A DNA stretch of 64,000 nucleotides from Escherichia coli. Its GTDB lineage: Bacteria; Pseudomonadota; Gammaproteobacteria; Enterobacterales; Enterobacteriaceae. The notes beneath the pieces are model-generated. The model saw nothing but the letters and a program-made list of their open reading frames with translations. It searched no databases and had not been told where the DNA came from. The stretch lies in the NCBI RefSeq assembly GCF_029227855.1, contig NZ_CP074356.1. One strand, written 5' to 3'. Shown one piece after another: positions 3,664 to 41,670 of the stretch (positions are counted from its first letter, which is position 1; each line of letters begins with the position of its first letter). A program made the translations under genes and the position numbers.

Positions 3664-5724
3664 GTGTTTTGGCGTGATATTACGTTGTCGGTCTGGCGTA
3701 AGAAGACAACTGGCCTCAAAACAAAAAAGCGTTTACTGCCGCTGGTGCTGGCAGCGGCATTATGCAGTTCACCGGTCTGGGCGGAAGAAGCCACTTTCAC
3801 CGCTAATTTTAAAGATACCGACCTGAAATCGTTCATCGAAACCGTCGGCGCTAACCTTAATAAAACCATCATTATGGGGCCGGGCGTACAGGGGAAAGTG
3901 AGTATTCGTACCATGACCCCGCTCAATGAACGCCAGTATTACCAGCTATTCCTTAACCTGCTGGAAGCACAGGGGTATGCCGTCGTACCGATGGAAAACG
4001 ACGTGCTGAAGGTGGTGAAATCCAGCGCCGCGAAAGTCGAGCCACTGCCACTGGTCGGTGAAGGCAGCGACAACTACGCGGGCGATGAAATGGTCACCAA
4101 AGTAGTGCCGGTACGTAATGTGTCGGTCCGCGAACTGGCACCGATTTTGCGCCAGATGATCGACAGCGCAGGCTCAGGCAACGTTGTTAATTACGATCCC
4201 TCCAACGTAATTATGCTCACCGGACGCGCCTCCGTCGTAGAGCGCCTGACGGAAGTGATCCAGCGTGTGGATCATGCGGGAAATCGCACTGAAGAGGTGA
4301 TCCCGCTGGATAACGCCTCGGCTTCGGAAATCGCCCGCGTGCTGGAAAGCCTGACCAAAAACAGCGGCGAGAACCAGCCAGCAACGCTGAAATCTCAAAT
4401 TGTCGCTGATGAACGCACCAACAGTGTGATTGTCAGTGGTGACCCCGCCACGCGGGACAAAATGCGCCGCCTGATCCGTCGGCTGGACTCAGAAATGGAA
4501 CGCAGCGGCAACAGCCAGGTGTTCTATCTCAAATACAGCAAAGCCGAAGATCTGGTCGATGTACTGAAGCAGGTCAGTGGCACGCTCACGGCGGCTAAAG
4601 AAGAGGCGGAAGGCACGGTCGGTAGCGGGCGTGAGGTTGTCTCCATCGCCGCCAGCAAACACAGTAATGCCCTGATTGTTACTGCGCCGCAGGACATCAT
4701 GCAGTCGCTGCAAAGCGTGATTGAACAACTGGATATTCGCCGTGCTCAGGTGCATGTCGAGGCGTTGATCGTGGAAGTTGCTGAAGGCAGCAATATCAAC
4801 TTCGGCGTGCAGTGGGCGTCGAAAGATGCCGGATTAATGCAGTTTGCTAACGGTACGCAGATCCCTATCGGTACGCTGGGCGCAGCCATTTCTCAGGCAA
4901 AACCGCAGAAAGGCTCCACGGTGATCAGCGAAAACGGTGCCACCACCATTAACCCGGATACCAACGGCGATCTCTCCACGCTCGCTCAGCTTCTTTCCGG
5001 CTTTAGCGGTACGGCGGTTGGCGTGGTGAAAGGCGACTGGATGGCGCTGGTACAGGCGGTCAAAAACGACTCCAGCTCGAACGTGCTCTCCACGCCGAGC
5101 ATCACTACGCTGGACAACCAGGAAGCCTTCTTCATGGTGGGCCAGGACGTTCCGGTATTAACTGGATCTACCGTTGGCTCCAATAACAGCAATCCTTTCA
5201 ACACGGTAGAAAGGAAAAAAGTCGGCATCATGCTGAAAGTTACGCCGCAGATTAACGAAGGTAACGCGGTACAGATGGTGATTGAGCAGGAAGTGTCGAA
5301 GGTGGAAGGACAGACCAGCCTCGACGTGGTGTTTGGTGAGCGCAAACTGAAAACCACCGTGCTGGCTAACGATGGTGAGCTAATTGTGCTTGGCGGTCTG
5401 ATGGACGACCAGGCGGGAGAAAGCGTGGCGAAAGTGCCGCTGCTTGGCGATATCCCATTGATTGGTAACCTGTTTAAATCGACGGCGGATAAAAAAGAAA
5501 AACGTAACCTGATGGTGTTTATCCGTCCGACCATTCTGCGTGACGGTATGGCGGCAGACGGCGTGTCGCAGCGCAAATATAACTATATGCGCGCCGAACA
5601 GATCTATCGCGATGAGCAAGGCTTAAGCCTGATGCCGCACACCGCGCAGCCGGTACTGCCAGCGCAAAATCAGGCCTTACCGCCGGAAGTACGTGCGTTC
5701 CTTAATGCCGGGAGAACGCGTTAA
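3664..5724 (+). CDS. gspD: T2SS outer-membrane secretin GspD
   Basis: 686 aa with signal peptide, N domains and C-terminal secretin domain ([15 protein letters not shown] motif); apparent GTG start. Confidence 0.9.
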
Positions 5725-20372: not shown

Positions 20373-21062
20373 TTACAGGTTAAATTCAGGGAGACATATG
20401 TTTTTTTCATCATGTCTATATTTGTCTATGGCAAGTGATATATCCTTGTAATATAAGGTGTGATTATTCCTCCCAAAGTAAATGGCCTCATCGCAATATT
20501 CTTTTAATAAGTTAAGACTATGAGAGACTATCAAAAAATTTGATTTTTCATGTTTTTCCCTAAATAAGGAAAAACATTTCTCTTTAAATCTGGCGTCTCC
20601 CACAGCCATAACTTCATCAACAAGATAATAATCAAAATCAAATGCCATGCTGAGTCCAAATCCTAACCGAGAACGCATGCCAGAAGAATATGTTTTTATT
20701 GGCATGTCAAAGTATTTCCCCAGTTCGGAAAATTCCTCTACAAATGAAACCTTATCTTGCAGCTCATCTTTTTTAGCATAAAGTCTTGCAACAAATTTAA
20801 CATTTTCACGCCCTGTCAGACTGCCTTGAAAACCACCAGCTAAACCTACTGGCCATGAAATGGTTTGATCAGTAAGTATTCTCCCCTTATCTGGTCGATC
20901 TATACCACCTATTATTCGAAGCAATGTTGATTTACCTGCACCATTGCGTCCAACTAAAGCAACACTTTTTCCTGTGGGTAATTCAATATTTAAATCTTTA
21001 AAAACATAATGTCTTCCTTTAGGTGTACGATATGATTTGGTGAGATTCTCAATACGTATCAT
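20373..21062 (-). CDS. kpsT: capsule polysaccharide export ABC transporter ATP-binding protein KpsT
   Basis: Walker A GRNGAGKST, ABC signature YSSGMRSRL, Walker B DYYLVDE; start placed at MIRIENLTK, overlapping the kpsM stop (ATGA). Confidence 0.9.
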   Translation of the reverse strand: MIRIENLTKSYRTPKGRHYVFKDLNIELPTGKSVALVGRNGAGKSTLLRIIGGIDRPDKGRILTDQTISWPVGLAGGFQGSLTGRENVKFVARLYAKKDELQDKVSFVEEFSELGKYFDMPIKTYSSGMRSRLGFGLSMAFDFDYYLVDEVMAVGDARFKEKCFSLFREKHEKSNFLIVSHSLNLLKEYCDEAIYFGRNNHTLYYKDISLAIDKYRHDEKNICLPEFNL

Positions 21063-21838
21063 GAGGTTAACATAGCCTCCTCTTTGAAACGGTAAAGGCA
21101 AAGTCCTACGAAAAACACTACTAAAGAAAAAAATGCAAGATAATTAATACTAACACCTTCACTTATATATCCCGGTACAACAGATTGGCGACTTAACTCC
21201 ACAACATGTACTAAAGGATTCCATAATAAATATCCCCAGTATATTTTAGGGATAGAATGGAGAGGAAACATTACGCAAGATATGAAATAAAGAGGTTTAA
21301 TCATTATGGGCAAAAATTTTTCCGTTTCTGGGAAAGTTTTACCTAACACCATGAAAATTAAACCTATACCAAGAGAAAATATAATAAGTAATCCCCAAGT
21401 TGCAGCGAGTATAATGATGTTTAAAAATGAAAATTCTTCTCCAAGTAGACCTACAATTGACATGAGGATTATGTAAACACCACTATATATTAATGCTTCA
21501 AGAAGGGTTCGTGAAATTATGGTGTCAATAGGCTTTATAGGCCTGTAATTAAATAAGCCCTGATTAGAGTTTATTGCTCCAATAGAGCGGACAGCAATAT
21601 TACTAAAAAGAAAATAAGGGATAAGTCCGTTTAGAAGAAACACTGGGAACGATATATCTGGCATAGTTCTATGCATAATATATCCAAATATACCAATCAA
21701 GATTATCAAATGTGCTGTTGGCTCAAGGAGTGCCCATAAATACCCCAGACGATATTTACCAAAACGAGTCTTAATTTCACGAAGAAATAAAGCTTTTACT
21801 GCTGCTATTTGAACTTCAAAACCACTTCTTCTAGCCAT
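21059..21838 (-). CDS. kpsM: capsule polysaccharide export ABC transporter permease KpsM
   Basis: Start at internal Met (MARRSGFEVQ...), giving about 259 aa with six hydrophobic segments and the characteristic C-terminus ...EEAMLTS. Confidence 0.9.
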   Translation of the reverse strand: MARRSGFEVQIAAVKALFLREIKTRFGKYRLGYLWALLEPTAHLIILIGIFGYIMHRTMPDISFPVFLLNGLIPYFLFSNIAVRSIGAINSNQGLFNYRPIKPIDTIISRTLLEALIYSGVYIILMSIVGLLGEEFSFLNIIILAATWGLLIIFSLGIGLIFMVLGKTFPETEKFLPIMIKPLYFISCVMFPLHSIPKIYWGYLLWNPLVHVVELSRQSVVPGYISEGVSINYLAFFSLVVFFVGLCLYRFKEEAMLTS

Positions 21839-21865
21839 TTGAGATATAACCTTAATATATTTTGG

Positions 21866-21877
21866 TACGCTACCGCC
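21866..21877 (-). promoter_or_regulatory. ops (RfaH-loading) element in the kpsM leader
   Basis: Minus-strand sequence GGCGGTAGCGTA about 30 nt upstream of the kpsM ATG; matches the GGCGGTAGnnT ops core found in JUMPstart leaders. Confidence 0.6.
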
Positions 21878-22247
21878 CTTGGCTCTAGCTACCAGCATGC
21901 TCGGGCGTACCATATGAGACAAACCAGAATGGACAGATAAATATTTCGTCTGGTATTAGTTTGTCTTTTCTTTACGAAAATACTTATAGATTGGACAATG
22001 AAAAATTTGGTTTAAGGCAGTCCAACCTATGTAATGTTATTGAAACATCCTGCTAATAATCTTAAATTTAATGTTTCATTAAGTTCTATCAATTTAAACA
22101 CATTGATTTGCGAATTCTATCATTTAGACTTACAGATAACTCCAGTGTTTAATATGTAAACATGCCTCATAAATTGCAAGGTAGATTGCAGGTTGCTAAT
22201 CTTTTGTTACTTATATAAAATCTGTTTTGTTTATTTTATATCAAATT

Positions 22248-23480
22248 TTATTTATTGTTCAATGCAGAATTGGTTTCTAATGTAATAGTGTCGCAGTGTA
22301 ACTGTGACTCCCCATAATAAACCCCATTAACCTGCGTCTTCACCAATAAATACCCCCGAAACTTCTTAAACAGTTTCATATCCGGTTTAAAATCGGCCTG
22401 CCAGAACTGGTGCAAATGCCCTTGATACGTCAAGCCTTTGATGTCGTACAGGGCATTGCCCATCACTTTGAGTGGTTTGTTATGAATCAGCGCAGAGATC
22501 CCCGCCGTACTGTTAATCGTCACTACCGCTTTTGCATGGCGTAATAATTCCGGCATCGGGAGATCGTGCACATAAATGACTCGCTCATCTAAGCCATATT
22601 CCTTACTCAATCGCTTAATTAATGGTCGATAGAGTCTGTGACCACGATCCATCGGATGATGTTTGATCACCAAATAACTTTCTTTCGGCGCTTTACGTGA
22701 AAATGAGTACATGACTTCATTAATATAGTCACGCACATCGTTATAATTACTGTGGTTACGAATCTGGCTATCGTTATATACCTGCAAAACGGCAAGATAA
22801 TAACGCTGGTCCAGCTCGTTCATTAACCTCGGTAATACCTTACGCTGTGTTACCTTGTAAAGTTGCTTGCGCCAGTATGCACGAACCCAGCAACGAGCCT
22901 CATACCAGGGGGAAAACGATTTATGGTGGCGGTAGCGAGGGAACTCATGGCGGTAATGCCAGCCCATCAGGTAATACCACATCGCATGACCTATACGTTT
23001 CATCGTTGAAGGTTTAAAGTTCTCAACGTGCGGCGTAGGCATATCTGGTAACTTACGATAAAAATCCGGATCGCGCGGTAGCGATGAATATGCGTTTACT
23101 CCGCCTTCTTCAACGGTAATAAATTGCGGGCGTAAATATCCTTCCTCAAATGCCAGAAAGCGGATCCCTTTCGACTTTGCCCAACGTTTTGCTTCTTTGT
23201 GCAATGGGCGGCAGTCACCAAAGCAGAGGATGGTATCAAAGTCATATTGCCGGTGGAGATCCCGTAACCATCCGGGGAACTCTTTCGGCGTTTGGTAGTA
23301 AGCCAGGTATTGTCGATGGCGGCAGTAAAAACGATCCCCACCGTTGAATACAACATTCACAGCGTTACGTCCTAATGACTCTAACCATTCGGCGACGTCA
23401 TTGAAAAAAGGTCCCATCGGCCCCTGCAATAGCAGATATTTTTTACCGGATAATAAAACGGTTAGAGCATTACCTTGCAT
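22248..23480 (-). CDS. kpsS: capsule biosynthesis protein KpsS (beta-Kdo transferase that starts the glycolipid linker)
   Basis: 410 aa ORF following kpsC, with conserved KpsS-type motifs (TINSTAGISALIHNKPL). Confidence 0.9.
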   Translation of the reverse strand: MQGNALTVLLSGKKYLLLQGPMGPFFNDVAEWLESLGRNAVNVVFNGGDRFYCRHRQYLAYYQTPKEFPGWLRDLHRQYDFDTILCFGDCRPLHKEAKRWAKSKGIRFLAFEEGYLRPQFITVEEGGVNAYSSLPRDPDFYRKLPDMPTPHVENFKPSTMKRIGHAMWYYLMGWHYRHEFPRYRHHKSFSPWYEARCWVRAYWRKQLYKVTQRKVLPRLMNELDQRYYLAVLQVYNDSQIRNHSNYNDVRDYINEVMYSFSRKAPKESYLVIKHHPMDRGHRLYRPLIKRLSKEYGLDERVIYVHDLPMPELLRHAKAVVTINSTAGISALIHNKPLKVMGNALYDIKGLTYQGHLHQFWQADFKPDMKLFKKFRGYLLVKTQVNGVYYGESQLHCDTITLETNSALNNK

Positions 23481-23514
23481 AAATAATTTCCGTAATAGTC
23501 AACTATGAAATTGT

Positions 23515-25542
23515 TTAGCCAAATCTGACCTTGCAGAACATAATTAATTTGCGGTAATAACGTATTACTCGCCCCGCTTTTTTTCTGGTAATAAACAACG
23601 GCTTGCGCGGCGTCTGGATCAAATATTCCGCCGCCTCTTCAACCGTAATAGGTTGTAGCCGTGTTGGGTGGATATAGGTTGGATAAACAATCAACGCCTG
23701 ATAGATCAAATCTGCTAACGTTAATTTTTGCTCGCGGCGCGGGCAGTGATGTTCATCAACGGTTAAACCCCAACCGGCATAGAAGGGCAGGCCGTAACAA
23801 TGAACTTGCTTGCCATGTAATAACGCTTCAAACCCGGACAATGATGTCATGGTGTGCACTTCATCTGCGCGCTGAATGCATTGAATAATATCTGCGTCCA
23901 GTGCCTGATAATCAGCGAGTTCAGCAATTAGTTCTGCCGGAATGTCGCCCTTGCGATTCCCCACCAGTACATCCGGGTGCGGTTTATAAACAATGTAGGC
24001 GTGCGGATTACGCTCGCGTACTGTGCGTAATAACTCAAGGTTGCTCTTAATCGAGACAGTGCCTGTTTTAATAGAGGCATCGTCCTCTACCTGACCCGGC
24101 ACCAGGATAACTTTTTTATCTTTGGCTTCGGCTGGTAGAGAGAAATTGGCTCCCAGGTTGTACTTACTCAGTTTGCTTTCAACCAGTCGCTGGCGTAATT
24201 TTTCAGCTCGCATCTGCTGCGCCAGCGTTAACTGGCTGTGATTAAGCAGGACTTCCAGGTCGCTGGGGCGCGTGGCGTCATAGTAGATCCCGCGTTTATC
24301 CAGTACCAACGATAGCGGCGGCAGCAGGTCAGAGCCAAGTCCGGATGAACGCAGAAAACCATCTTCCATTCGCCATAACGGCAGTGATTTTTGTTGCGCT
24401 TCGGCTAGCCATTGCTGTTCTCCCTTTACACCCCATACCACGCAAGCCGTCGCCGCAGTACAGCGGCGTGAATAACTCAGTCTGTTTGTTGCGGTACGCA
24501 AGAAAGGTTTCAGGATTGCCGACTTCCACAGCGTTAAGCCTGGCGACCATAAATAGCCATTACGCTGTTGCTGATGGTTGCGCTGTAATTGCAGCCATTG
24601 CAGTACGGTAAACAGATCGCTTGCGGCCCCCGTGAGCGGGTCGATATAGCGACAGTAACGCAGGTATGCAGCGGCAAAAAGTTCTTCCAGCGTGGCAGAA
24701 CCGCGTCGGGCAGATAACAAAGCGGACTGCGGATGGCGATCGTCGGTTAAGCCCCAGCCTGCATACCAGGGCTGGCCGAAACATGTTACTGGTTTTCCTG
24801 CCAGCAAGGCTTCAAAGCCGTATTGGGATGTCACGACGTAAACCCGGGAAACGTGTCGCAACAGCGACTGCGGGCTGACATTCTCGGCAATCAAACGTAC
24901 TCGTTGCGTGGCGCGCAGATCAGCGAAATAACCTGTTTTCTTTCCTTCCAGGACATCCGGATGCACCTTCACCCAAATTTCGGCTTGAGGATTTTCCGCC
25001 ATCGCGGCTTCCAGCATGGCAGCAAACTCATGCGGGCCAGCATTGCCATACGTCACTGACATATCATTAAATGTCTGATCGACAACCAGAACGATGTCTG
25101 AACGTTCTGACTCATCAGCCACAAACGCAGGTGCCAGGTTATATTTCGACAAATCCCCGGTCACGATGGTGTGCATCGCTTCTCTGGCCAGGCTTATCAG
25201 AGCTGTATTTCCGGCTTTATCCTGTACCAGTTTCTCCAGTGCTGAAGGCTTGCTGGCATCGTAGTAAATGCCACAATCATCCACCACCAGAGAAAGCGGC
25301 GGCTCGCCATTGACGCCAAGATCCAGCGAACGCACAAATCCATCTTCCAGACGAATGACGGGTTTTCCCGCTGCTTTGGCGATGGCGACTGGTTTCGCCG
25401 CGCTGGGACGATGTCCCCACACGGCGATAGCATCAACTTCTTGTGGAACAGGGCGCAGCAGAGAAAGTTTCTGGCACGGTTGCGCCAGAAATTTCTCCAG
25501 ATGCGGAATACGCCAGATACCGGACGAGAAAATGCCAATCAT
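23515..25542 (-). CDS. kpsC: capsule biosynthesis protein KpsC (dual-module beta-Kdo transferase)
   Basis: 675 aa with two repeated modules each containing EDGF[VL]RS...GFEALL...FYAGWGLT; overlaps kpsU stop. Confidence 0.9.
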
Positions 25543-26279
25543 GCGTTTTCAGCCAGTTCCTGTGCCATCAGGGCGCGCACTTTTTCCAGGCATGCTGGGG
25601 TGTCGACGCCCGGACCGGTTGCGGCAACCTCAAATGTGCGGATGTTGATCCCCGCGCTCATCAACCGCAGCTGCTCCAGTGATTCTGCCTGCTCCGGCAT
25701 GGACTCCGGTAACTGGCTGTAGTTTTGCAGCACATCACGACGATAAGCATAAATACCGACGTGTTTCAGGTAGCGCGCTTTTTCAGCATTACGCGGATAC
25801 GGAATCGGCGAACGGCTGAAATAAAGTGCATCCTGGCGGGTATTCACAACCACTTTTACCGTGCTTGGCTCGGCCGCTTCTTCGGCAGAAATCGCGTGGC
25901 ATAGCGTTGCCACTGGCAACGCGGGATCGTCACGCATTCCTTGTAGCAGCGTTTCTACATCCCGCGGGCGAATCATTGGTTCATCGCCCTGCAAGTTAAT
26001 GTAGATATCTGCTTCCACCGTATGCATTACCTCGACCAGCCGATCGGTGCCGGATTCATGATCGTTGCGCGTCATGATGGCTTTCCCGCCAAATGCCTGC
26101 ACGGCCTTTTCAACACGCGGGTCGTCTGTTGCCACCCAAACTTCCGCAACGCCCGCCACCTGTAACGCACGCTCGTAAACATGCTGGATCATCGGTTTAC
26201 CAACAATATCGAGCAGTGGCTTACCCGGCAGACGCGATGAGCCATAACGAGCCGGGATGACAATAACAGCTTTGCTCAT
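25539..26279 (-). CDS. kpsU: CMP-Kdo synthetase KpsU
   Basis: 246 aa; N-terminal [22 protein letters not shown] nucleotide-binding motif of KdsB-family cytidylyltransferases. Confidence 0.9.
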
Positions 26280-26288
26280 TTCAACTCC

Positions 26289-27968
26289 TTACAAAGACAG
26301 AATCACTTTTGCACCCACCGCCAGCTGATAGAGGATGGTGGAAATACCACGGGTAACTTCAATATTTTTCGATTCATATTTCGGTAGAACCATAATCTCA
26401 TCGCCCGGCTTGAGTGAATCCACGTCTTCTGCGTTGACGGCTGCACCGTTCTGACGAATGACGATAATTCTGGCGTTACCCGATTTCTGCGTCAGGCCAC
26501 CACATTTCTCGATGTAATCCTCGGTGGTCATACCCTTCTGCCAGCTCACCGCGTTCGGGAACAGCACTTCGCCATGAACCATAACCAGCGATGTTTTCTC
26601 CGGAATATTGATGACGTCGCCATCTTCAAGCAGAACAGAATCAATATTGGATTCGTTGAGGATCACTTCACCTTTCGGAACCACGGTGCGTGCTTTCGCC
26701 ACAAAGCGGCTGATCAGTTGTGCTTCCTGCATTCGCAGGCTGGCTTCTTCTTTGGTGGATGACTGGGCAGAAAGTGAGGCTTCCTCCAGTTTTTGCAGCG
26801 AGAGATTCAGCATCTCTTTCTGACGCTGAGCTACTGATGGGCGATAAAGCTGAACCGCGTTCATCTGCGACATGCTGTTCGGGCGGACTTTTTCCAGAAC
26901 CGCACGCATAGTGGAACCATAAGGCAGTACCATGGCATGTTCACCGGAGTGCGCGCCTTCAACCCGCACCTGAATGGTGCCGGCATAGCGGTCAGTGCTC
27001 ACGATTAAGGTATCGCCATTTTGCAACATACGGCCTGGTGCAGAACTGATCGGATAGTATTCGCTGCGTTTTTGCAGCCCCTGTTTACGCATAATCGTAA
27101 TGTGAGTCGCGCCAGGCTTAGGGCGCGCCCAGCTCAACGCTTCCGTTACGGGAATGCTGCTTTCGCGGAACTCAAAGTCGTAGCTGTTAAAGACATCGCC
27201 CTGAACGCTGAAAGTATGCTGACGCGGCCCGACGATGATGGTGTCACCATCGGCGAACTGCGAAAGCCCCAGTTTGCCGTTCAGCAGGAAGTCGTACAGG
27301 TTGACGTTGGAGCGCACGCGGTTACCGCGCTTGACCACAATATCAACGTAACTTCCGCGCTCTGGATCAACGCCGCCAGCCTTGATCAGATAATTGAGTA
27401 ACGAATCAGACGTCACACCGCCATACAGACCAGGATTACGCACAAATCCGGTCACGTACACTTTTACTGGCTGCGCCTGTAATAAGGAGGCGTAGACGTT
27501 GACGTTGGACTGGTACACTTCCTTCACTTTTGATGTAACCAGAGTGTTCAACTGACTATTGCTAACCCCGGCAACTTTCACCGGACCAACGTTTGGCAGA
27601 AAAATATTACCTTTGGGATCAATCTGTAATGCACCATCAAAGGTGAACGCACCCCACAAGCGAACCTGAATGCTATCACCCGGATTCAGAATATAGTCAG
27701 GGTTGAATCCTACCGTCGCACCGCTATCCGCGCTGGTGCCGTTGAAAAGTTGAGCACCAAACATACGGCTCATTACCACCGGCGGTGCGGGGGGTGGAGT
27801 ATTGTCGAAGCCGCTCATGTTTTGCGTATCCGACTGTTGCCCGTTCAGAATACCGGTAAGCGGCGCGGCTCCTGTCAGGTTTGGGTCAGCGTTAATATCA
27901 ATGGCCGCGCTGGCCTGCGCCGCGTGACAGGCGGCAATCAGTAAAATTGATTTAAATAATTTCATCAC
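26289..27968 (-). CDS. kpsD: capsule export periplasmic/outer-membrane protein KpsD
   Basis: 559 aa with signal peptide (MMKLFKSILLIAACHAAQA); conserved position between kpsE and kpsU. Confidence 0.9.
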   Translation of the reverse strand: MMKLFKSILLIAACHAAQASAAIDINADPNLTGAAPLTGILNGQQSDTQNMSGFDNTPPPAPPVVMSRMFGAQLFNGTSADSGATVGFNPDYILNPGDSIQVRLWGAFTFDGALQIDPKGNIFLPNVGPVKVAGVSNSQLNTLVTSKVKEVYQSNVNVYASLLQAQPVKVYVTGFVRNPGLYGGVTSDSLLNYLIKAGGVDPERGSYVDIVVKRGNRVRSNVNLYDFLLNGKLGLSQFADGDTIIVGPRQHTFSVQGDVFNSYDFEFRESSIPVTEALSWARPKPGATHITIMRKQGLQKRSEYYPISSAPGRMLQNGDTLIVSTDRYAGTIQVRVEGAHSGEHAMVLPYGSTMRAVLEKVRPNSMSQMNAVQLYRPSVAQRQKEMLNLSLQKLEEASLSAQSSTKEEASLRMQEAQLISRFVAKARTVVPKGEVILNESNIDSVLLEDGDVINIPEKTSLVMVHGEVLFPNAVSWQKGMTTEDYIEKCGGLTQKSGNARIIVIRQNGAAVNAEDVDSLKPGDEIMVLPKYESKNIEVTRGISTILYQLAVGAKVILSL

Positions 27969-27988
27969 AAACTCATTCAGCGACAGCG

Positions 27989-29137
27989 TTAGTCTCGGTG
28001 ATCTTCAATAACAGCCAGCAACAGTTTCAGGGTGCCGAACAGCAGGCAGCACACCAGTAACCAGCAGGCGATCAAATAAGGGATATTTGGAAAAGACGAT
28101 TCCTGCGGCAACTGTGGCGAACTGATCACTGACAGCACCTTGAGCTTACGAGCCGCTTCTACACGGGTCTTTTCAATGGAGGTCAGGGTCAGTTTGTACA
28201 GCTCGGTGTTGAACTCTACTTTTGATTTGATTTCTTCAAAATCCACCGCCATACGGTTTAGCTTGTCACCCTGCGGCGCTGTGATTTTGCTTTTTTCTTC
28301 GTCAATTTGTGCCTGCAATGACTGAATCGCATTACGCGCACTCACAACTTGCGGGGCGTCCTCACGCAGATACGTCAGCAAGTTCCGCAGGTCCGCTTCC
28401 ATCTGGATCTTCTGGCCCATCAGCGTATTCACTAACGTGCTCGCCGCCTGTGCCTGTGCCTGTGGATCCAGAACGTTGTTGTTGTCTTGATAAGAGAGCA
28501 ATTCCGCTTTGCTGGCGTCCAGACGCTGGCGTGCCTTTTCCATCTCCGTTTCTGCAAAGGCAAGCTGGTCACGCGCGATGCGATGTGACATCTCATTGAT
28601 AAAGCGCTCTGACTCTTTCAGCACGGTTTGGTTAAACTTAAGCGCAAATTCCGGGCTAAAGCCCTGCGTCTGAATATTCAGTAATCCGGTTTTATCGTCA
28701 TACGAGACGTTGATACGGTCCTTGTAGTACTTCAGGAAGCCTTCTGCGGTTTCATCCTTGCTAAGATGATTAAGAAAATCGAGCCCGCTGTGGCTAAACG
28801 CTTCACGAAAATTTAGTTGCTTATCCAGCGCCGCCAGCATATCCGGCGAGTTGATGTACTCTTTCAGATACAACGCATCTTCTGCGGAACTGGGGTTAGA
28901 GGCACCCAGAAGCAGACCAAAATTCAGGCTGCCGCTGTTTAAATCATCCGAGCGTTTAATGGCGACTTTCGACTCGCTCATATAGCGAGGCTGGCTGAAG
29001 ATAGCCAGATAGATCAGCAGCACCGCCATCGGTGCCAGAATGATGATTTTCGCCAGGTGTTTTTGGATATCTGCCAGTGAGATGGCAGACAGACGAGCAC
29101 GCATCCAGGATACGGCAGACTTCACTTTTATCAACAT
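27989..29137 (-). CDS. kpsE: capsule export inner-membrane co-polymerase-like protein KpsE
   Basis: 382 aa with N- and C-terminal membrane segments flanking a coiled-coil-rich periplasmic domain. Confidence 0.9.
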   Translation of the reverse strand: MLIKVKSAVSWMRARLSAISLADIQKHLAKIIILAPMAVLLIYLAIFSQPRYMSESKVAIKRSDDLNSGSLNFGLLLGASNPSSAEDALYLKEYINSPDMLAALDKQLNFREAFSHSGLDFLNHLSKDETAEGFLKYYKDRINVSYDDKTGLLNIQTQGFSPEFALKFNQTVLKESERFINEMSHRIARDQLAFAETEMEKARQRLDASKAELLSYQDNNNVLDPQAQAQAASTLVNTLMGQKIQMEADLRNLLTYLREDAPQVVSARNAIQSLQAQIDEEKSKITAPQGDKLNRMAVDFEEIKSKVEFNTELYKLTLTSIEKTRVEAARKLKVLSVISSPQLPQESSFPNIPYLIACWLLVCCLLFGTLKLLLAVIEDHRD

Positions 29138-29208
29138 GTAACGATTATCAAAGTTTCAGTGGGGCGCAAACTCAATGAGAGACTAACCTCTCGCACCCCG
29201 TTGCTTAA

Positions 29209-30192
29209 TTAGTCGAAAATGCGCACAAGGCCAGTGACTTTATTTGCCTTGTTGGTCACCAATAACGTTGAGACGCGGTGCTTTTGCATTTTTTCTTCCG
29301 CTTCAATGATCATGGTGTCTTCCGGTAGCGTCAGCGGTTCACGTGTCATCATCTGCGCAGCCGTGGCGGATGTCAGAGAATCCTCTTTTTCCATAAAGCG
29401 ACGCAGGTCACCGTCGGTGATAATGCCCGCTAGCCCACCTTCTGCGTCTTCTACCATCACCATTCCCTGGCATCCGCTGGTGATACGTTGAATCACGGTT
29501 TTAAATGACGCATCCAGCTGTACCGCAGGAACATCATGCTGCATGACATCAGCAACGCGGGTCAGCAGGCGACGACCTAATGAACCGCCCGGGTGATAGC
29601 GCGCAAAATCATTCGGCATAAATTTGCGTTGGTGGATCATGGCAATCGCCAGCGCATCGCCGATCGCCATCGTCAGCGTGGTAGACGTTGTTGGTGCAAG
29701 ATTATTCGGGCAGGTTTCATTCGCCATGTGGAGTTCCAGCACGGCATCAGCATTTTTCGCCAGCGTGGAATTTCCATTATTGGTAATGGCGATAATTCGG
29801 TTGCCGAAATTTTTCAGTGAAGGAACTAGCTTGAGGATTTCATCCGTTTCACCGCTGGCAGAAATAAGGATCAGAAGATCGTAAGGCGTAATCATGCCCA
29901 GATCGCCATGGAAAGCTTCTGCAGGATGAATAAAGAAACTAGGCGTACCCGTAGAGGCCAGCGTCGCTGACATTTTACGACCGACATGCCCTGATTTACC
30001 CATTCCCGAAAGAATAACGTGACCTTTACAGTTCATTATCAAATTAAGGACACGCTGGTACTGCCCGGAATCCAGTTGTTTAGACAAGTTTTGTAATGCT
30101 GCGCCTTGTTCTGCCAGAGTCTGGCGAACAGAGGTAATTAGATATGGATCGATAGTACTGCTCTGGTCATCAGGTAAATGTCTTTCAGACAT
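29209..30192 (-). CDS. kpsF: arabinose-5-phosphate isomerase KpsF (start at internal Met; the ORF track extends 12 codons further)
   Basis: SIS domain (GMGKSGHVGRKMSATLASTG) plus tandem CBS domains; 327 aa from MSERHLP. Confidence 0.9.
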   Translation of the reverse strand: MSERHLPDDQSSTIDPYLITSVRQTLAEQGAALQNLSKQLDSGQYQRVLNLIMNCKGHVILSGMGKSGHVGRKMSATLASTGTPSFFIHPAEAFHGDLGMITPYDLLILISASGETDEILKLVPSLKNFGNRIIAITNNGNSTLAKNADAVLELHMANETCPNNLAPTTSTTLTMAIGDALAIAMIHQRKFMPNDFARYHPGGSLGRRLLTRVADVMQHDVPAVQLDASFKTVIQRITSGCQGMVMVEDAEGGLAGIITDGDLRRFMEKEDSLTSATAAQMMTREPLTLPEDTMIIEAEEKMQKHRVSTLLVTNKANKVTGLVRIFD

Positions 30193-30400
30193 ATCAGCTC
30201 CTTTGCACGGAAATAATGCCACAGTCACAACAAACCCGAACCCACTATAATTTATTTATGCTAAATCAATGGGTTGTAACAAAATTTTTAATGAATATAA
30301 AACCATGGTCAGTCCATGCTTATATGCAGGACTTATCACCTTCTTATTAAGTCGCAATGTCTCATGGAGGTGCGAAGATGCTGCAATATTACAGGCGAGA
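30193..30400 (-). promoter_or_regulatory. kps region 1 promoter/leader region with an IHF-consensus match
   Basis: AT-rich sequence upstream of kpsF; AATCAATGGGTTG at 30264-30276 fits WATCAANNNNTTR. Sequence motif only. Confidence 0.35.
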
Positions 30401-31002
30401 AGGGGAACCAAATTTTGCCCACCTATTTAACACACCCCTACATTATGAACAAGGAATTTAGGATTTTTATCATTTATTAAAATGTTTCCTACTTGACTAT
30501 TAAGACCAAAAACAATTTATCAATTGATTATTTCCTTGTAAAAAAAGAACGTATGACTATGTTATTAATAAATAAAACACGCAAATAATGGTGATGTTGT
30601 TTTGTGATTAACTATTTAAGTGCGGCATAATAAACAGGTTGATAATTTCTATGTAAAGAAGAGGAAAATAATAAAATTTTAGCGGTGACTATTGAATGAT
30701 GTGATAGTTGTGGTGTTGATTATTTCTGGTAATGAATGCGGAATTAAATCTGGCCGGATTGTATTTTTGCTATATCTATTTTTCAGGAGATTATTATTAA
30801 ATAGAAAAATAACAATGGTGATTATCTCCGGTTGAGCTGGAGTCACGTATGCCAGCGAGTGCTTTCTTCCGGGCCTTCCTTCACTTCAGAGAAAGAGCCT
30901 ATGGAAAAGAGGCAATCATCAGGCTTTTTTTGAGTCATATGCGCCGATAATCAACTGTCTTGAACGTAAAAATTATGGAGCAACATGATGCTACGATTCA
31001 TT

Positions 31003-31233
<231 letters not shown>

Positions 31234-31339
31234 TTATGTGAACTGAACTGTGTTTTGTTAGCGGGGGATGTTTATTGATGATTCGGGAGTGTTTAAGACC
31301 TGATGGCGTTATGCTCCCAAGTTTATTTTATATAAAGAT

Positions 31340-31372
31340 CCAAAAGCAAAAACCCGCCTTGTGAGCGGGTTC
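31340..31372 (-). terminator. rho-independent terminator downstream of pheV
   Basis: Stem aacccgc / gcgggtt with 7 nt loop; the minus strand reads the hairpin followed by a T run. Confidence 0.6.
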
Positions 31373-31383
31373 TTAAGAATTAG

Positions 31384-31459
31384 TGGTGCCCGGACTCGGA
31401 ATCGAACCAAGGACACGGGGATTTTCAATCCCCTGCTCTACCGACTGAGCTATCCGGGC
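31384..31459 (-). tRNA. pheV: tRNA-Phe (GAA)
   Basis: Reverse complement is GCCCGGATAGCTCAGTCGGTAGAGCAGGGGATTGAAAATCCCCGTGTCCTTGGTTCGATTCCGAGTCCGGGCACCA: 76 nt with cloverleaf, GAA anticodon and encoded CCA. Confidence 0.95.
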
Positions 31460-40039: not shown

Positions 40040-40135
<96 letters not shown>

Positions 40136-40197
40136 TGTACTTTGTTATCAATCTGGGGCCAGCAAATGCTGGCCTGATTTGTTCTTGAGGGAAGACT

Positions 40198-40959: not shown

Positions 40960-41670
40960 ATTGTGCACAGAAAACCCCCAGCTAGGCTGGGGGTTCCGGA
41001 AAGCTTTCAGCTTTGAGCCAGTTATTAAAACCCCTTTTGATTTGTTAAAACACTTTGCGGTCTGGCAACTGCAAGTGTCAAACAAGAAATCAAAAGGGGG
41101 TCCCAATGGGGAACGAAAAGAGCTTAGCGCACACCCGATGGAACTGTAAATATCACATAGTTTTTGCGCCAAAATACCGAAGACAGGTGTTCTACAGAGA
41201 GAAGCGTAGAGCAATAGGCAGTATTTTGAGAAAGCTGTGTGAGTGGAAAAGCGTACGGATTCTGGAAGCTGAATGCTGTGCAGATCATATCCATATGCTT
41301 GTGGAGATCCCGCCCAAAATGAGCGTATCCGGGTTTATGGGATATCTGAAAGGGAAAAGCAGTCTGATGCTTTACGAGCAGTTTGGTGATTTGAAATTCA
41401 AATACAGGAACAGGGAGTTCTGGTGCAGAGGGTACTACGTCGATACAGTGGGTAAGAACACGGCGAAGATACAGGATTACATAAAGCACCAGCTTGAAGA
41501 GGATAAAATGGGAGAGCAGTTATCGATTCCCTATCCGGGCAGCCCGTTTACGGGCCGTAAGTAACGAAGTTGGATGCAAATGTCAGATCGTGTGCGCCTG
41601 TTAGGGCGCGGCTGGTAAGAGAGCCTTATAGGCGCATTTGAAAAACCTCCGGCTATGCCGGAGGATATTT
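40960..41670 (+). mobile_element. IS200 insertion sequence (IS200/IS605 family); ends approximate
   Basis: Left-end perfect palindrome aaacccccagc ta gctgggggtt and second RBS-sequestering stem-loop (ccccttttgatt...aatcaaaagggg) upstream of tnpA; total size about 0.7 kb fits IS200. Confidence 0.7.
41106..41564 (+). CDS. tnpA: IS200 transposase TnpA (Y1 HUH transposase)
   Basis: 152 aa; HUH motif HIHML and catalytic Tyr region (FWCRGYYVDTVG). Confidence 0.85.
   Translation: MGNEKSLAHTRWNCKYHIVFAPKYRRQVFYREKRRAIGSILRKLCEWKSVRILEAECCADHIHMLVEIPPKMSVSGFMGYLKGKSSLMLYEQFGDLKFKYRNREFWCRGYYVDTVGKNTAKIQDYIKHQLEEDKMGEQLSIPYPGSPFTGRK

Follow-up and report, generated by a model that had tools for sequence, protein, structure and literature searches.

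The JUMPstart/ops element is the standard site at which the anti-termination factor RfaH boards RNA polymerase, and its presence before kpsM is textbook knowledge. In canonical group 2 capsule clusters of Escherichia coli, region 1 is convergent with kpsMT and region 2, whose promoter PR3 is characterised by H-NS/SlyA footprints and by being on at 37 °C and off at 20 °C. PR3, with its −10 element, lies 741 bp upstream of kpsM, and ops is 28 bp distant from kpsM (PMC8960920). Mutagenesis identified ops positions 3–8 and T11 as those that matter most, and a G12C substitution abolished the U11 pause in vitro while RfaH recruitment remained (PMC5995543). RfaH has been seen at the canonical kps ops by ChIP in strain CFT073, where the RfaH-bound ops sites described all reside in operon leader regions, and AT-rich DNA is the type on which RfaH counter-silencing operates (PMC9765446).

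Capsule loci in which kpsMT run in the same direction as region 1 are also on record. The Kaptive E. coli database lists such co-directional 'atypical K-loci', among them KL112 of E. coli ST131 clade C, which was reported to have lost ops and to have no PR3, with kpsMT still expressed, below the level of region 1, by RNA-seq (preprint 10.64898/2025.12.15.689991). The locus described here presents an ordinary, well-understood element in this atypical, already known architecture.

Architecture of the locus

The window, by which we mean the whole 64-kb stretch of DNA analysed, carries an E. coli pheV-linked group 2 capsule (kps) locus on its minus strand and is 100% identical to strain MRSN346647. 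Following the tRNA-Phe gene (31459–31387), the region upstream of kpsF (30193–30800) holds the canonical PR1 promoter region, the position of PR1 being taken from PMC8960920 and from the introduction of the KL112-related preprint. The region 1 genes kpsF-E-D-U-C-S occupy 30192–22248, with kpsF at 29209–30192 and kpsS at 22248–23480 (stop codon 22250–22248). A non-coding spacer of 409 nt (22247–21839) separates kpsS from a divergent kpsM allele of 259 codons (21059–21838), the first gene 3′ of ops, which is followed by the ABC transporter ATPase gene kpsT (20373–21062). Region 2 (14772–20179), co-directional with kpsMT, encodes a GT4-family glycosyltransferase (18221–20179), a protein with Capsule_synth, GT29-like and TPR domains (15812–18214) and GalE (14772–15800), so that all genes from kpsF to galE point the same way on the minus strand. 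A hexapeptide acyltransferase gene on the plus strand (14102–14683) is convergent with them, and yghD and an intact gsp operon lie beyond it.

The 15812–18214 product is an 800-residue protein that combines a KpsS-like Capsule_synth domain with TPR and GT29 (sialyltransferase-family) domains; despite the latter, the locus has no sialic acid synthesis genes. Related multidomain proteins of differing length fill region 2 of sister K-loci. When YZ22MPE6 was considered as a possible KL112 locus, its region 2 protein proved to have a HAD domain only and no KpsS-like domain.

Gene content and the pheV/yghD site are those of a group 2 cluster, and regions 1 and 3 are not convergent. With kpsMT co-directional after kpsS and region 2 outside, we therefore class the locus as an atypical group 2 locus. 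A prior sequence-only reading of this DNA had described it as rearranged, which is borne out by the shared orientation of kpsS and kpsM and by the loss of PR3 described below. The window resembles KL112 in that kpsMT are oriented as region 1, region 2 lies outside, kpsMT are highly divergent and canonical PR3 is absent. It is not KL112, because its kpsM measures 780 rather than 777 bp, its gsp operon is intact and its region 2 is different; moreover, KL112 was reported with IS1, without adjacent gsp and with ops lost, whereas in the window yghD is intact alongside gsp and ops is present.

Identification of a JUMPstart/ops element

The ops element GGCGGTAGCGTA is found at 21877–21866 on the minus strand, which is the sense strand of kpsM, and is 12 nt long. 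Positions 1–11, the 11-mer GGCGGTAGCGT at 21877–21867, are identical to the consensus GGCGGTAGCGTG, and position 12 is an A, as it also is in the canonical E. coli kps ops GGCGGTAGCATA. Eleven of 12 positions agree with the ops definition GGCGGTAGnnTG on the non-template (sense) strand, and the RfaH-contacting core bases (positions 3–8) and T11 are all intact. The bare 8-mer GGCGGTAG occurs five times in the 64-kb window (1.3 expected); only the copy in the kpsM leader is embedded in a full-length JUMPstart match.

This JUMPstart element (21902–21866, minus strand; stem CUGGU/GCCAA followed by ops) aligns over positions 1–38 of the Rfam model RF01707 and is the single match to that model in the entire window. 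Its score of 32.8 bits (E = 5e-4 in a 17-kb search and 1.9e-3 over the whole 64 kb) falls below the RF01707 gathering score of 35 bits, because an A at 21879 (G to A) turns the outer stem pair into a C·A mismatch. The homologue in the YZ22MPE6 lineage, which has diverged to 83% identity and carries a G at the position equivalent to 21879, scores 41.4 bits, and the canonical element 53.6 bits. In the stem-loop directly 5′ of ops (cUGGu...gCCAg) four of five pairs form in the window. The outer pair is likewise unpaired in 9 of 29 natural kpsM leaders, in which the inner four pairs are 90–100% paired, 90% of all stem cells are paired and compensatory changes occur at two pairs. The element aligns column for column with the canonical kpsM JUMPstart, and the same stem-position A and A12 recur in natural kpsM leaders elsewhere, the validated canonical leader being one of them. 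Membership in the JUMPstart family is supported by this homology despite the sub-threshold score.

Between ops position 12 (21866) and the A of the kpsM ATG (21838) there are 27 nt. We measured 28 nt in the canonical K2 locus and 21–36 nt (median 28) in 26 kpsM loci of other Enterobacterales, so the distance to kpsM is, as had been claimed from the sequence, the expected one. All 27 positions of this interval (21865–21839, minus strand) are identical in the diverged YZ22MPE6-type locus. It contains a weak and distant Shine-Dalgarno-like AAGG (21853–21850), 11 nt from the kpsM ATG. As a whole, ops sits in a non-coding spacer without a conserved ORF, ahead of 7.2 kb of co-directional genes, as a leader element would.

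Elsewhere in the window, an ops-like GGCGGTAGCGAG lies antisense within kpsS (22928–22939, plus strand) and is kept in every kpsS examined, including those of canonical loci. It has no JUMPstart context, ends in AG instead of TG, and is probably a coincidence of coding constraint. Rfam matches unrelated to the ops leader were obtained on the plus strand for naRNA4 (40095–40140; 42.6 bits, below its gathering score) and STnc490 (40973–41096; 144.6 bits), the latter of which adjoins an IS4 copy in the K2 comparison locus.

Conservation of the leader

Of 32 species-level kpsM loci from other Enterobacterales, 26 have JUMPstart/ops 5′ of kpsM, and the bases GGGCGGTAGC-T are invariant across the 29 aligned kpsM leaders. 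None of the 32 loci has a co-directional kpsS within 4 kb upstream of kpsM. Within E. coli, the complete spacer and kpsMT module is 99.8–100% identical in 34 complete genomes (33 chromosomes and one plasmid record) and precedes at least three different region 2 sets. A second lineage, represented by YZ22MPE6 and 19KM1831, carries the spacer at 83% identity.

Comparing the window type with the YZ22MPE6 type, we found the spacer 83.1% identical and kpsM third codon positions 81.9% identical, which puts the spacer as a whole at the neutral rate of change. By contrast with this 82% neutral background, JUMPstart itself is identical at 36 of 37 positions and the stretch from JUMPstart through the ATG at 63 of 64, for which a binomial estimate (one change or fewer in 64 sites at 18% divergence) gives about 4e-5. 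Sequence comparison therefore gives evident purifying selection from JUMPstart to the ATG, and no clear sign of it in the remainder of the spacer. The 12-mer at 21866–21877 picked out by the sequence-only reading is confirmed by these alignments, with its full-length RF01707 match and its homology to the 26 leaders of other genera.

Relationship to the canonical leader

We compared the canonical 1.17-kb yghD–kpsM region with the whole window by blastn. Matches were confined to the 3′ end of yghD (to 13141) and to a segment running from JUMPstart (~21894) into kpsM at 73% identity. The canonical PR3, located next to yghD in the canonical locus, and the 741-nt untranslated leader are absent beside yghD and everywhere else in the window. 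Upstream of JUMPstart, the spacer is homologous neither to PR3 nor to another known promoter, and its likeness to canonical or other-species kpsM leaders is limited to approximately its last 60–85 nt. The question of how much of the canonical leader is retained, which the sequence-only reading had left to comparison, can be answered: almost none, apart from about 60 nt from JUMPstart to the ATG of a Phytobacter/Kluyvera-like subtype. A PR3 remnant beside yghD, perhaps driving the reversed acyltransferase gene, was considered and ruled out, as canonical homology stops at 13141.

Region 1, including the PR1 region and the 30193–30800 interval, is collinear with and 97.5% identical to the canonical K2 locus from 31406 down to 22307. 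Canonical homology ends there, about 19 codons before the kpsS stop, and a locus-specific kpsS tail lies beyond. The break resembles the usual region 1/region 2 junction in its position, KpsS tails being hypervariable among K types just here; with tails after ...VNGVYYG so variable, the KpsS C-terminus is uninformative as a sign of a donor in which kpsS preceded kpsM. Since canonical homology ends at 22307 and at 13141, the foreign block comprises 22306–13142, and this stretch of about 9 kb (13.2–22.3 kb) has 23–38% GC throughout.

Within the block, kpsM shares 67% nucleotide and 74.5% amino acid identity with canonical K2 kpsM. The closest KpsM relatives are those of Kluyvera and Phytobacter, at 77–79% amino acid identity, and these and related kpsM leaders have the same JUMPstart subtype, GAGCATGCTGGTAGCTAnAGCCAGGGGCGGTAGCGTG. 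Their kpsM follows unrelated genes, and upstream of about −85 their leaders are unrelated to the window. Only the last ~20–25 nt (21903 to ~21925) of the distal spacer, an AT-rich segment of 345 nt (21903–22247, minus strand), align with kpsM leaders of other genera. Megablast and blastn searches of 5,426 E. coli genomes, plasmids, one metagenome DNA scan and the 32 species-level kpsM loci yielded no distal spacer homologue beyond E. coli co-directional K-loci; its donor is unsampled.

At the other end of the block, a non-coding right flank of ~510 nt beside yghD (13142 to ~13650–13676) is 84–90% shared by all co-directional K-loci examined and absent from canonical loci, and constitutes a conserved feature of the co-directional family in its own right. 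At its inner edge, a plus-strand TTGACA-18-TATAGT (13647–13676; 11 of 12 matches) faces the acyltransferase gene and is the strongest promoter-like site in the parts scanned (13000–15000 and 14600–31400).

Overall, the window shares with the canonical group 2 region 3 leader (K1/K5/K2) a JUMPstart/ops just 5′ of kpsM at near-equal spacing, with kpsMT and an AT-rich region 2 next, in a locus that has region 1 and the pheV ... yghD/gsp site. It differs in retaining no PR3 or pre-JUMPstart leader sequence, in its diverged kpsM and in a JUMPstart loop that is 2 nt shorter; and whereas the canonical leader adjoins yghD in convergent orientation, that of the window lies downstream of kpsS in the same orientation. 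With the ops-dependent RfaH leaders gathered in RF01707, those of rfa (waa), rfb, hly, tra and cps, it has in common a full-length model alignment, an intact ops core and a position in front of an AT-rich polysaccharide operon that is long and was acquired horizontally. It differs from them in a score just under the threshold and in that its ops may be reached by transcripts begun ~8.5 kb upstream at PR1, not only as part of a primary 5′ leader.

The AT-rich spacer and the transcription unit

The 21960–22247 segment had been noted as strongly AT-rich. At 26.4% GC it is so, and the canonical PR3 region is similar (27–35%); however, low GC is common to the whole imported block (34% in kpsM, 35% in kpsT and 30% in each of the next two genes) and is therefore not a local promoter signature. 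A consensus scan of 900 nt returned seven promoter-like sites (three on the sense strand), versus 3.7 expected from shuffled sequence, an excess of about twofold, and such matches abound across the AT-rich block.

The best sigma-70 promoter candidate is predicted at 22262–22235 on the minus strand, with a −35 hexamer TTGAAC (22262–22257), a 16-nt spacer and an extended −10 element TGaTATAAA (22243–22235); it was also picked up in the overlapping register TTGAAC-18-TAAAAT. This candidate spans the kpsS stop codon and is retained in the YZ22MPE6 type; scored with a crude position-weight matrix, it comes fourth among the promoter-like sites of 7.6 kb of AT-rich sense strand. A second candidate, 22092–22065, ranks eighth by the same measure and is not conserved in the YZ22MPE6 type. 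The proposal that 21960–22247 is itself a functional H-NS-bound, thermoregulated region 3 promoter was not established, given neutral divergence, hexamers at only about twice the shuffled level and no terminator between kpsS and ops; the best candidate lies at or outside the upper edge of that interval.

In other genera, where kpsM comes after unrelated genes such as nadR or a MacB-like ABC transporter gene, the AT-rich gap upstream of it measures ~350–1,670 nt, most often 350–710 nt. These gaps presumably hold a promoter of their own, and the 409-nt spacer could therefore be the native promoter and leader of the donor.

Other features of the spacer were examined and set aside. A 16-codon ORF read by eye is frameshifted in the YZ22MPE6 type, the remaining ORFs are short AT-rich noise, and no small conserved ORF was found in the spacer. 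An inverted repeat, GACAAAC...GTTTGTC (21913–21965), upstream of JUMPstart folds at −12.6 kcal/mol with a non-significant z of −1.7 and without covariation; the fold of the whole spacer is weak (z = −2.4), and no Rfam family matched the distal spacer.

No terminator-like site was predicted in the 409 nt between kpsS and ops. An 11-bp hairpin with a T-run (21986–22030), considered as a kpsS terminator, has a loop of 23 nt and does not stay intact in the YZ22MPE6 type. From ops to 14695 there are only intragenic terminator-like sites at chance level, and just after galE, 7.2 kb downstream of ops, a hairpin with a T-run (14695–14666, minus strand) likely ends the ops-controlled transcription unit, to judge from its sequence. 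The DNA downstream of ops is AT-rich throughout, the kpsM–kpsT–region 2 unit of 7.2 kb having roughly 31% GC. Between galE and the acyltransferase gene, two back-to-back terminator-like hairpins with T-runs (14666–14750), one per strand, mark the end of both convergent transcription units.

Discussion

Our analysis of the sequence suggests that the last 64 nt of the 409-nt kpsS–kpsM spacer are a working JUMPstart/ops leader, and that this leader came with a foreign, divergent kpsMT cassette of non-E. coli enterobacterial type and not from the E. coli PR3 leader; we give these two propositions jointly a probability of roughly 0.8. RNA polymerase arriving from upstream would transcribe ops, and the non-template GGCGGTAG hairpin and U11 pause would lead to RfaH loading, as experiments on the canonical homologue indicate. 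Going by established RfaH biology, the RfaH-modified polymerase should resist Rho termination and H-NS/StpA-induced pausing, and could run through kpsM, kpsT and region 2 to the terminator after galE. RfaH probably also aids ribosome recruitment and translation initiation at the kpsM start, which is weakly equipped with a Shine-Dalgarno sequence.

Two features count against a working ops: A12 in place of the pause-favouring G, and the RF01707 score of 32.8 bits against a threshold of 35. Together with the mismatched outer stem pair, they would fit a non-functional relic that was carried along with kpsM, with expression independent of RfaH. KL112 was reported without ops and yet with kpsMT expressed (10.64898/2025.12.15.689991), so expression without ops may be possible in co-directional architectures. 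We nonetheless consider a relic very improbable. A sequence freed from function would have to have kept 63 of 64 positions over an 82% neutral background, the core positions 3–8 and T11 are intact, and the same stem A and A12 are found in other natural leaders, the validated canonical one among them.

How polymerases reach this leader is less clear-cut. With canonical PR3 replaced, they must come from a promoter in the spacer (at best 22262–22235), from PR1 by read-through across kpsS, or from both, and these sources are not mutually exclusive. The spacer (~21903–22262) may hold an autonomous PR3-like promoter, H-NS-silenced at low temperature, from which kpsMT and region 2 are chiefly driven and which places ops in a leader of ~350–390 nt. 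If region 3 keeps independent control, a replacement for PR3 is needed, and the conserved −35/extended −10 candidate at 22262–22235, ranked fourth, could provide it, with the eighth-ranked site at 22092–22065 in reserve; the low GC shared with the canonical PR3 region and the presumed promoters in the kpsM gaps of other genera point the same way. Yet the spacer diverges at the neutral rate and has no homology to PR3 or any other known promoter, promoter-like sites (seven versus 3.7 expected) are common throughout the block, and of the two candidates one is not conserved while the other has a −35 half that is also kpsS coding sequence and could be conserved for that reason. We put this arrangement at a little short of an even chance. 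As there is no terminator between kpsS and ops, read-through from an intact PR1 is an equally viable source of transcription. In its strict form, kpsF to galE would be one PR1-driven operon of ~15.7 kb without a significant promoter in the spacer, and RfaH would be loaded mid-operon at the boundary from normal GC to AT-rich DNA. The co-directional run of genes agrees with this, as do the intact PR1 and region 1 (97.5% identical to canonical), the neutral evolution of the spacer and the lack of any intrinsic terminator-like site in it, its sole hairpin with a T-run being the long-looped, unconserved one at 21986–22030. KL112 RNA-seq, in which kpsMT were expressed below region 1 level and the authors report no PR3 (10.64898/2025.12.15.689991), is a further point in its favour. 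It has, on the other hand, to accommodate 409 nt of untranslated, H-NS-prone sequence before ops, where Rho or H-NS could stop an unprotected polymerase; the RfaH-bound ops sites of CFT073 all lie in operon leaders (PMC9765446), and relatives of the kpsMT cassette evidently have a promoter of their own. The strict form thus seems to us a tenable but doubtful account. Its extension to this family of co-directional K-loci, in which the cluster became a single ~15.7-kb PR1-driven operon with RfaH acting mid-operon at the GC-to-AT boundary, no independent region 3 promoter, and thermoregulation through PR1 and RfaH counter-silencing, we hold to be unlikely, if still worth entertaining.

In extraintestinal pathogenic E. 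coli, RfaH and ops decide if the serotype-specific capsule genes are switched on at all. If the leader described here works as proposed, atypical co-directional K-loci should also be RfaH-dependent and fall within reach of RfaH as an anti-virulence target. The presence of ops in the window tempers the recent claim that co-directional rearrangements lose it, which would not hold generally, and the locus offers a clean natural test case for an ops fed by an upstream operon versus one served by its own promoter. The leader reveals no new mechanism. What is new is modest, namely that ops appears to have been retained under selection in the co-directional family, that it probably arrived with a foreign kpsMT cassette, and that the family has its own conserved right flank.

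Related capsule loci

Further loci of note were encountered among those compared. KK05-19 and DG341-1 have another atypical order, which reads yghD, a canonical JUMPstart/ops (position 4931 in the KK05-19 locus), three region 2 genes and kpsMT, the last running towards kpsS. The ops of these loci has remained part of the PR3 leader, ~770 nt ahead of the first of the region 2 genes, and none lies immediately 5′ of kpsM. The plasmid record NZ_CP137739.1 of strain HNSQ2209 (187 kb, annotated as an IncHI-type plasmid), contains the same co-directional kps locus with the chromosomal flank pheV–yqgA–speC, bounded by IS5 and IS1, and represents either a mobilised capsule island or an assembly artefact. 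In ECONIH5, also considered as a possible KL112 locus, an IS-riddled island has a kpsMT allele unique among complete genomes, with its own JUMPstart/ops 27 nt upstream; kpsC and kpsS fragments of this island lie on the opposite strand, adjoining a truncated mug gene and an integrase gene.
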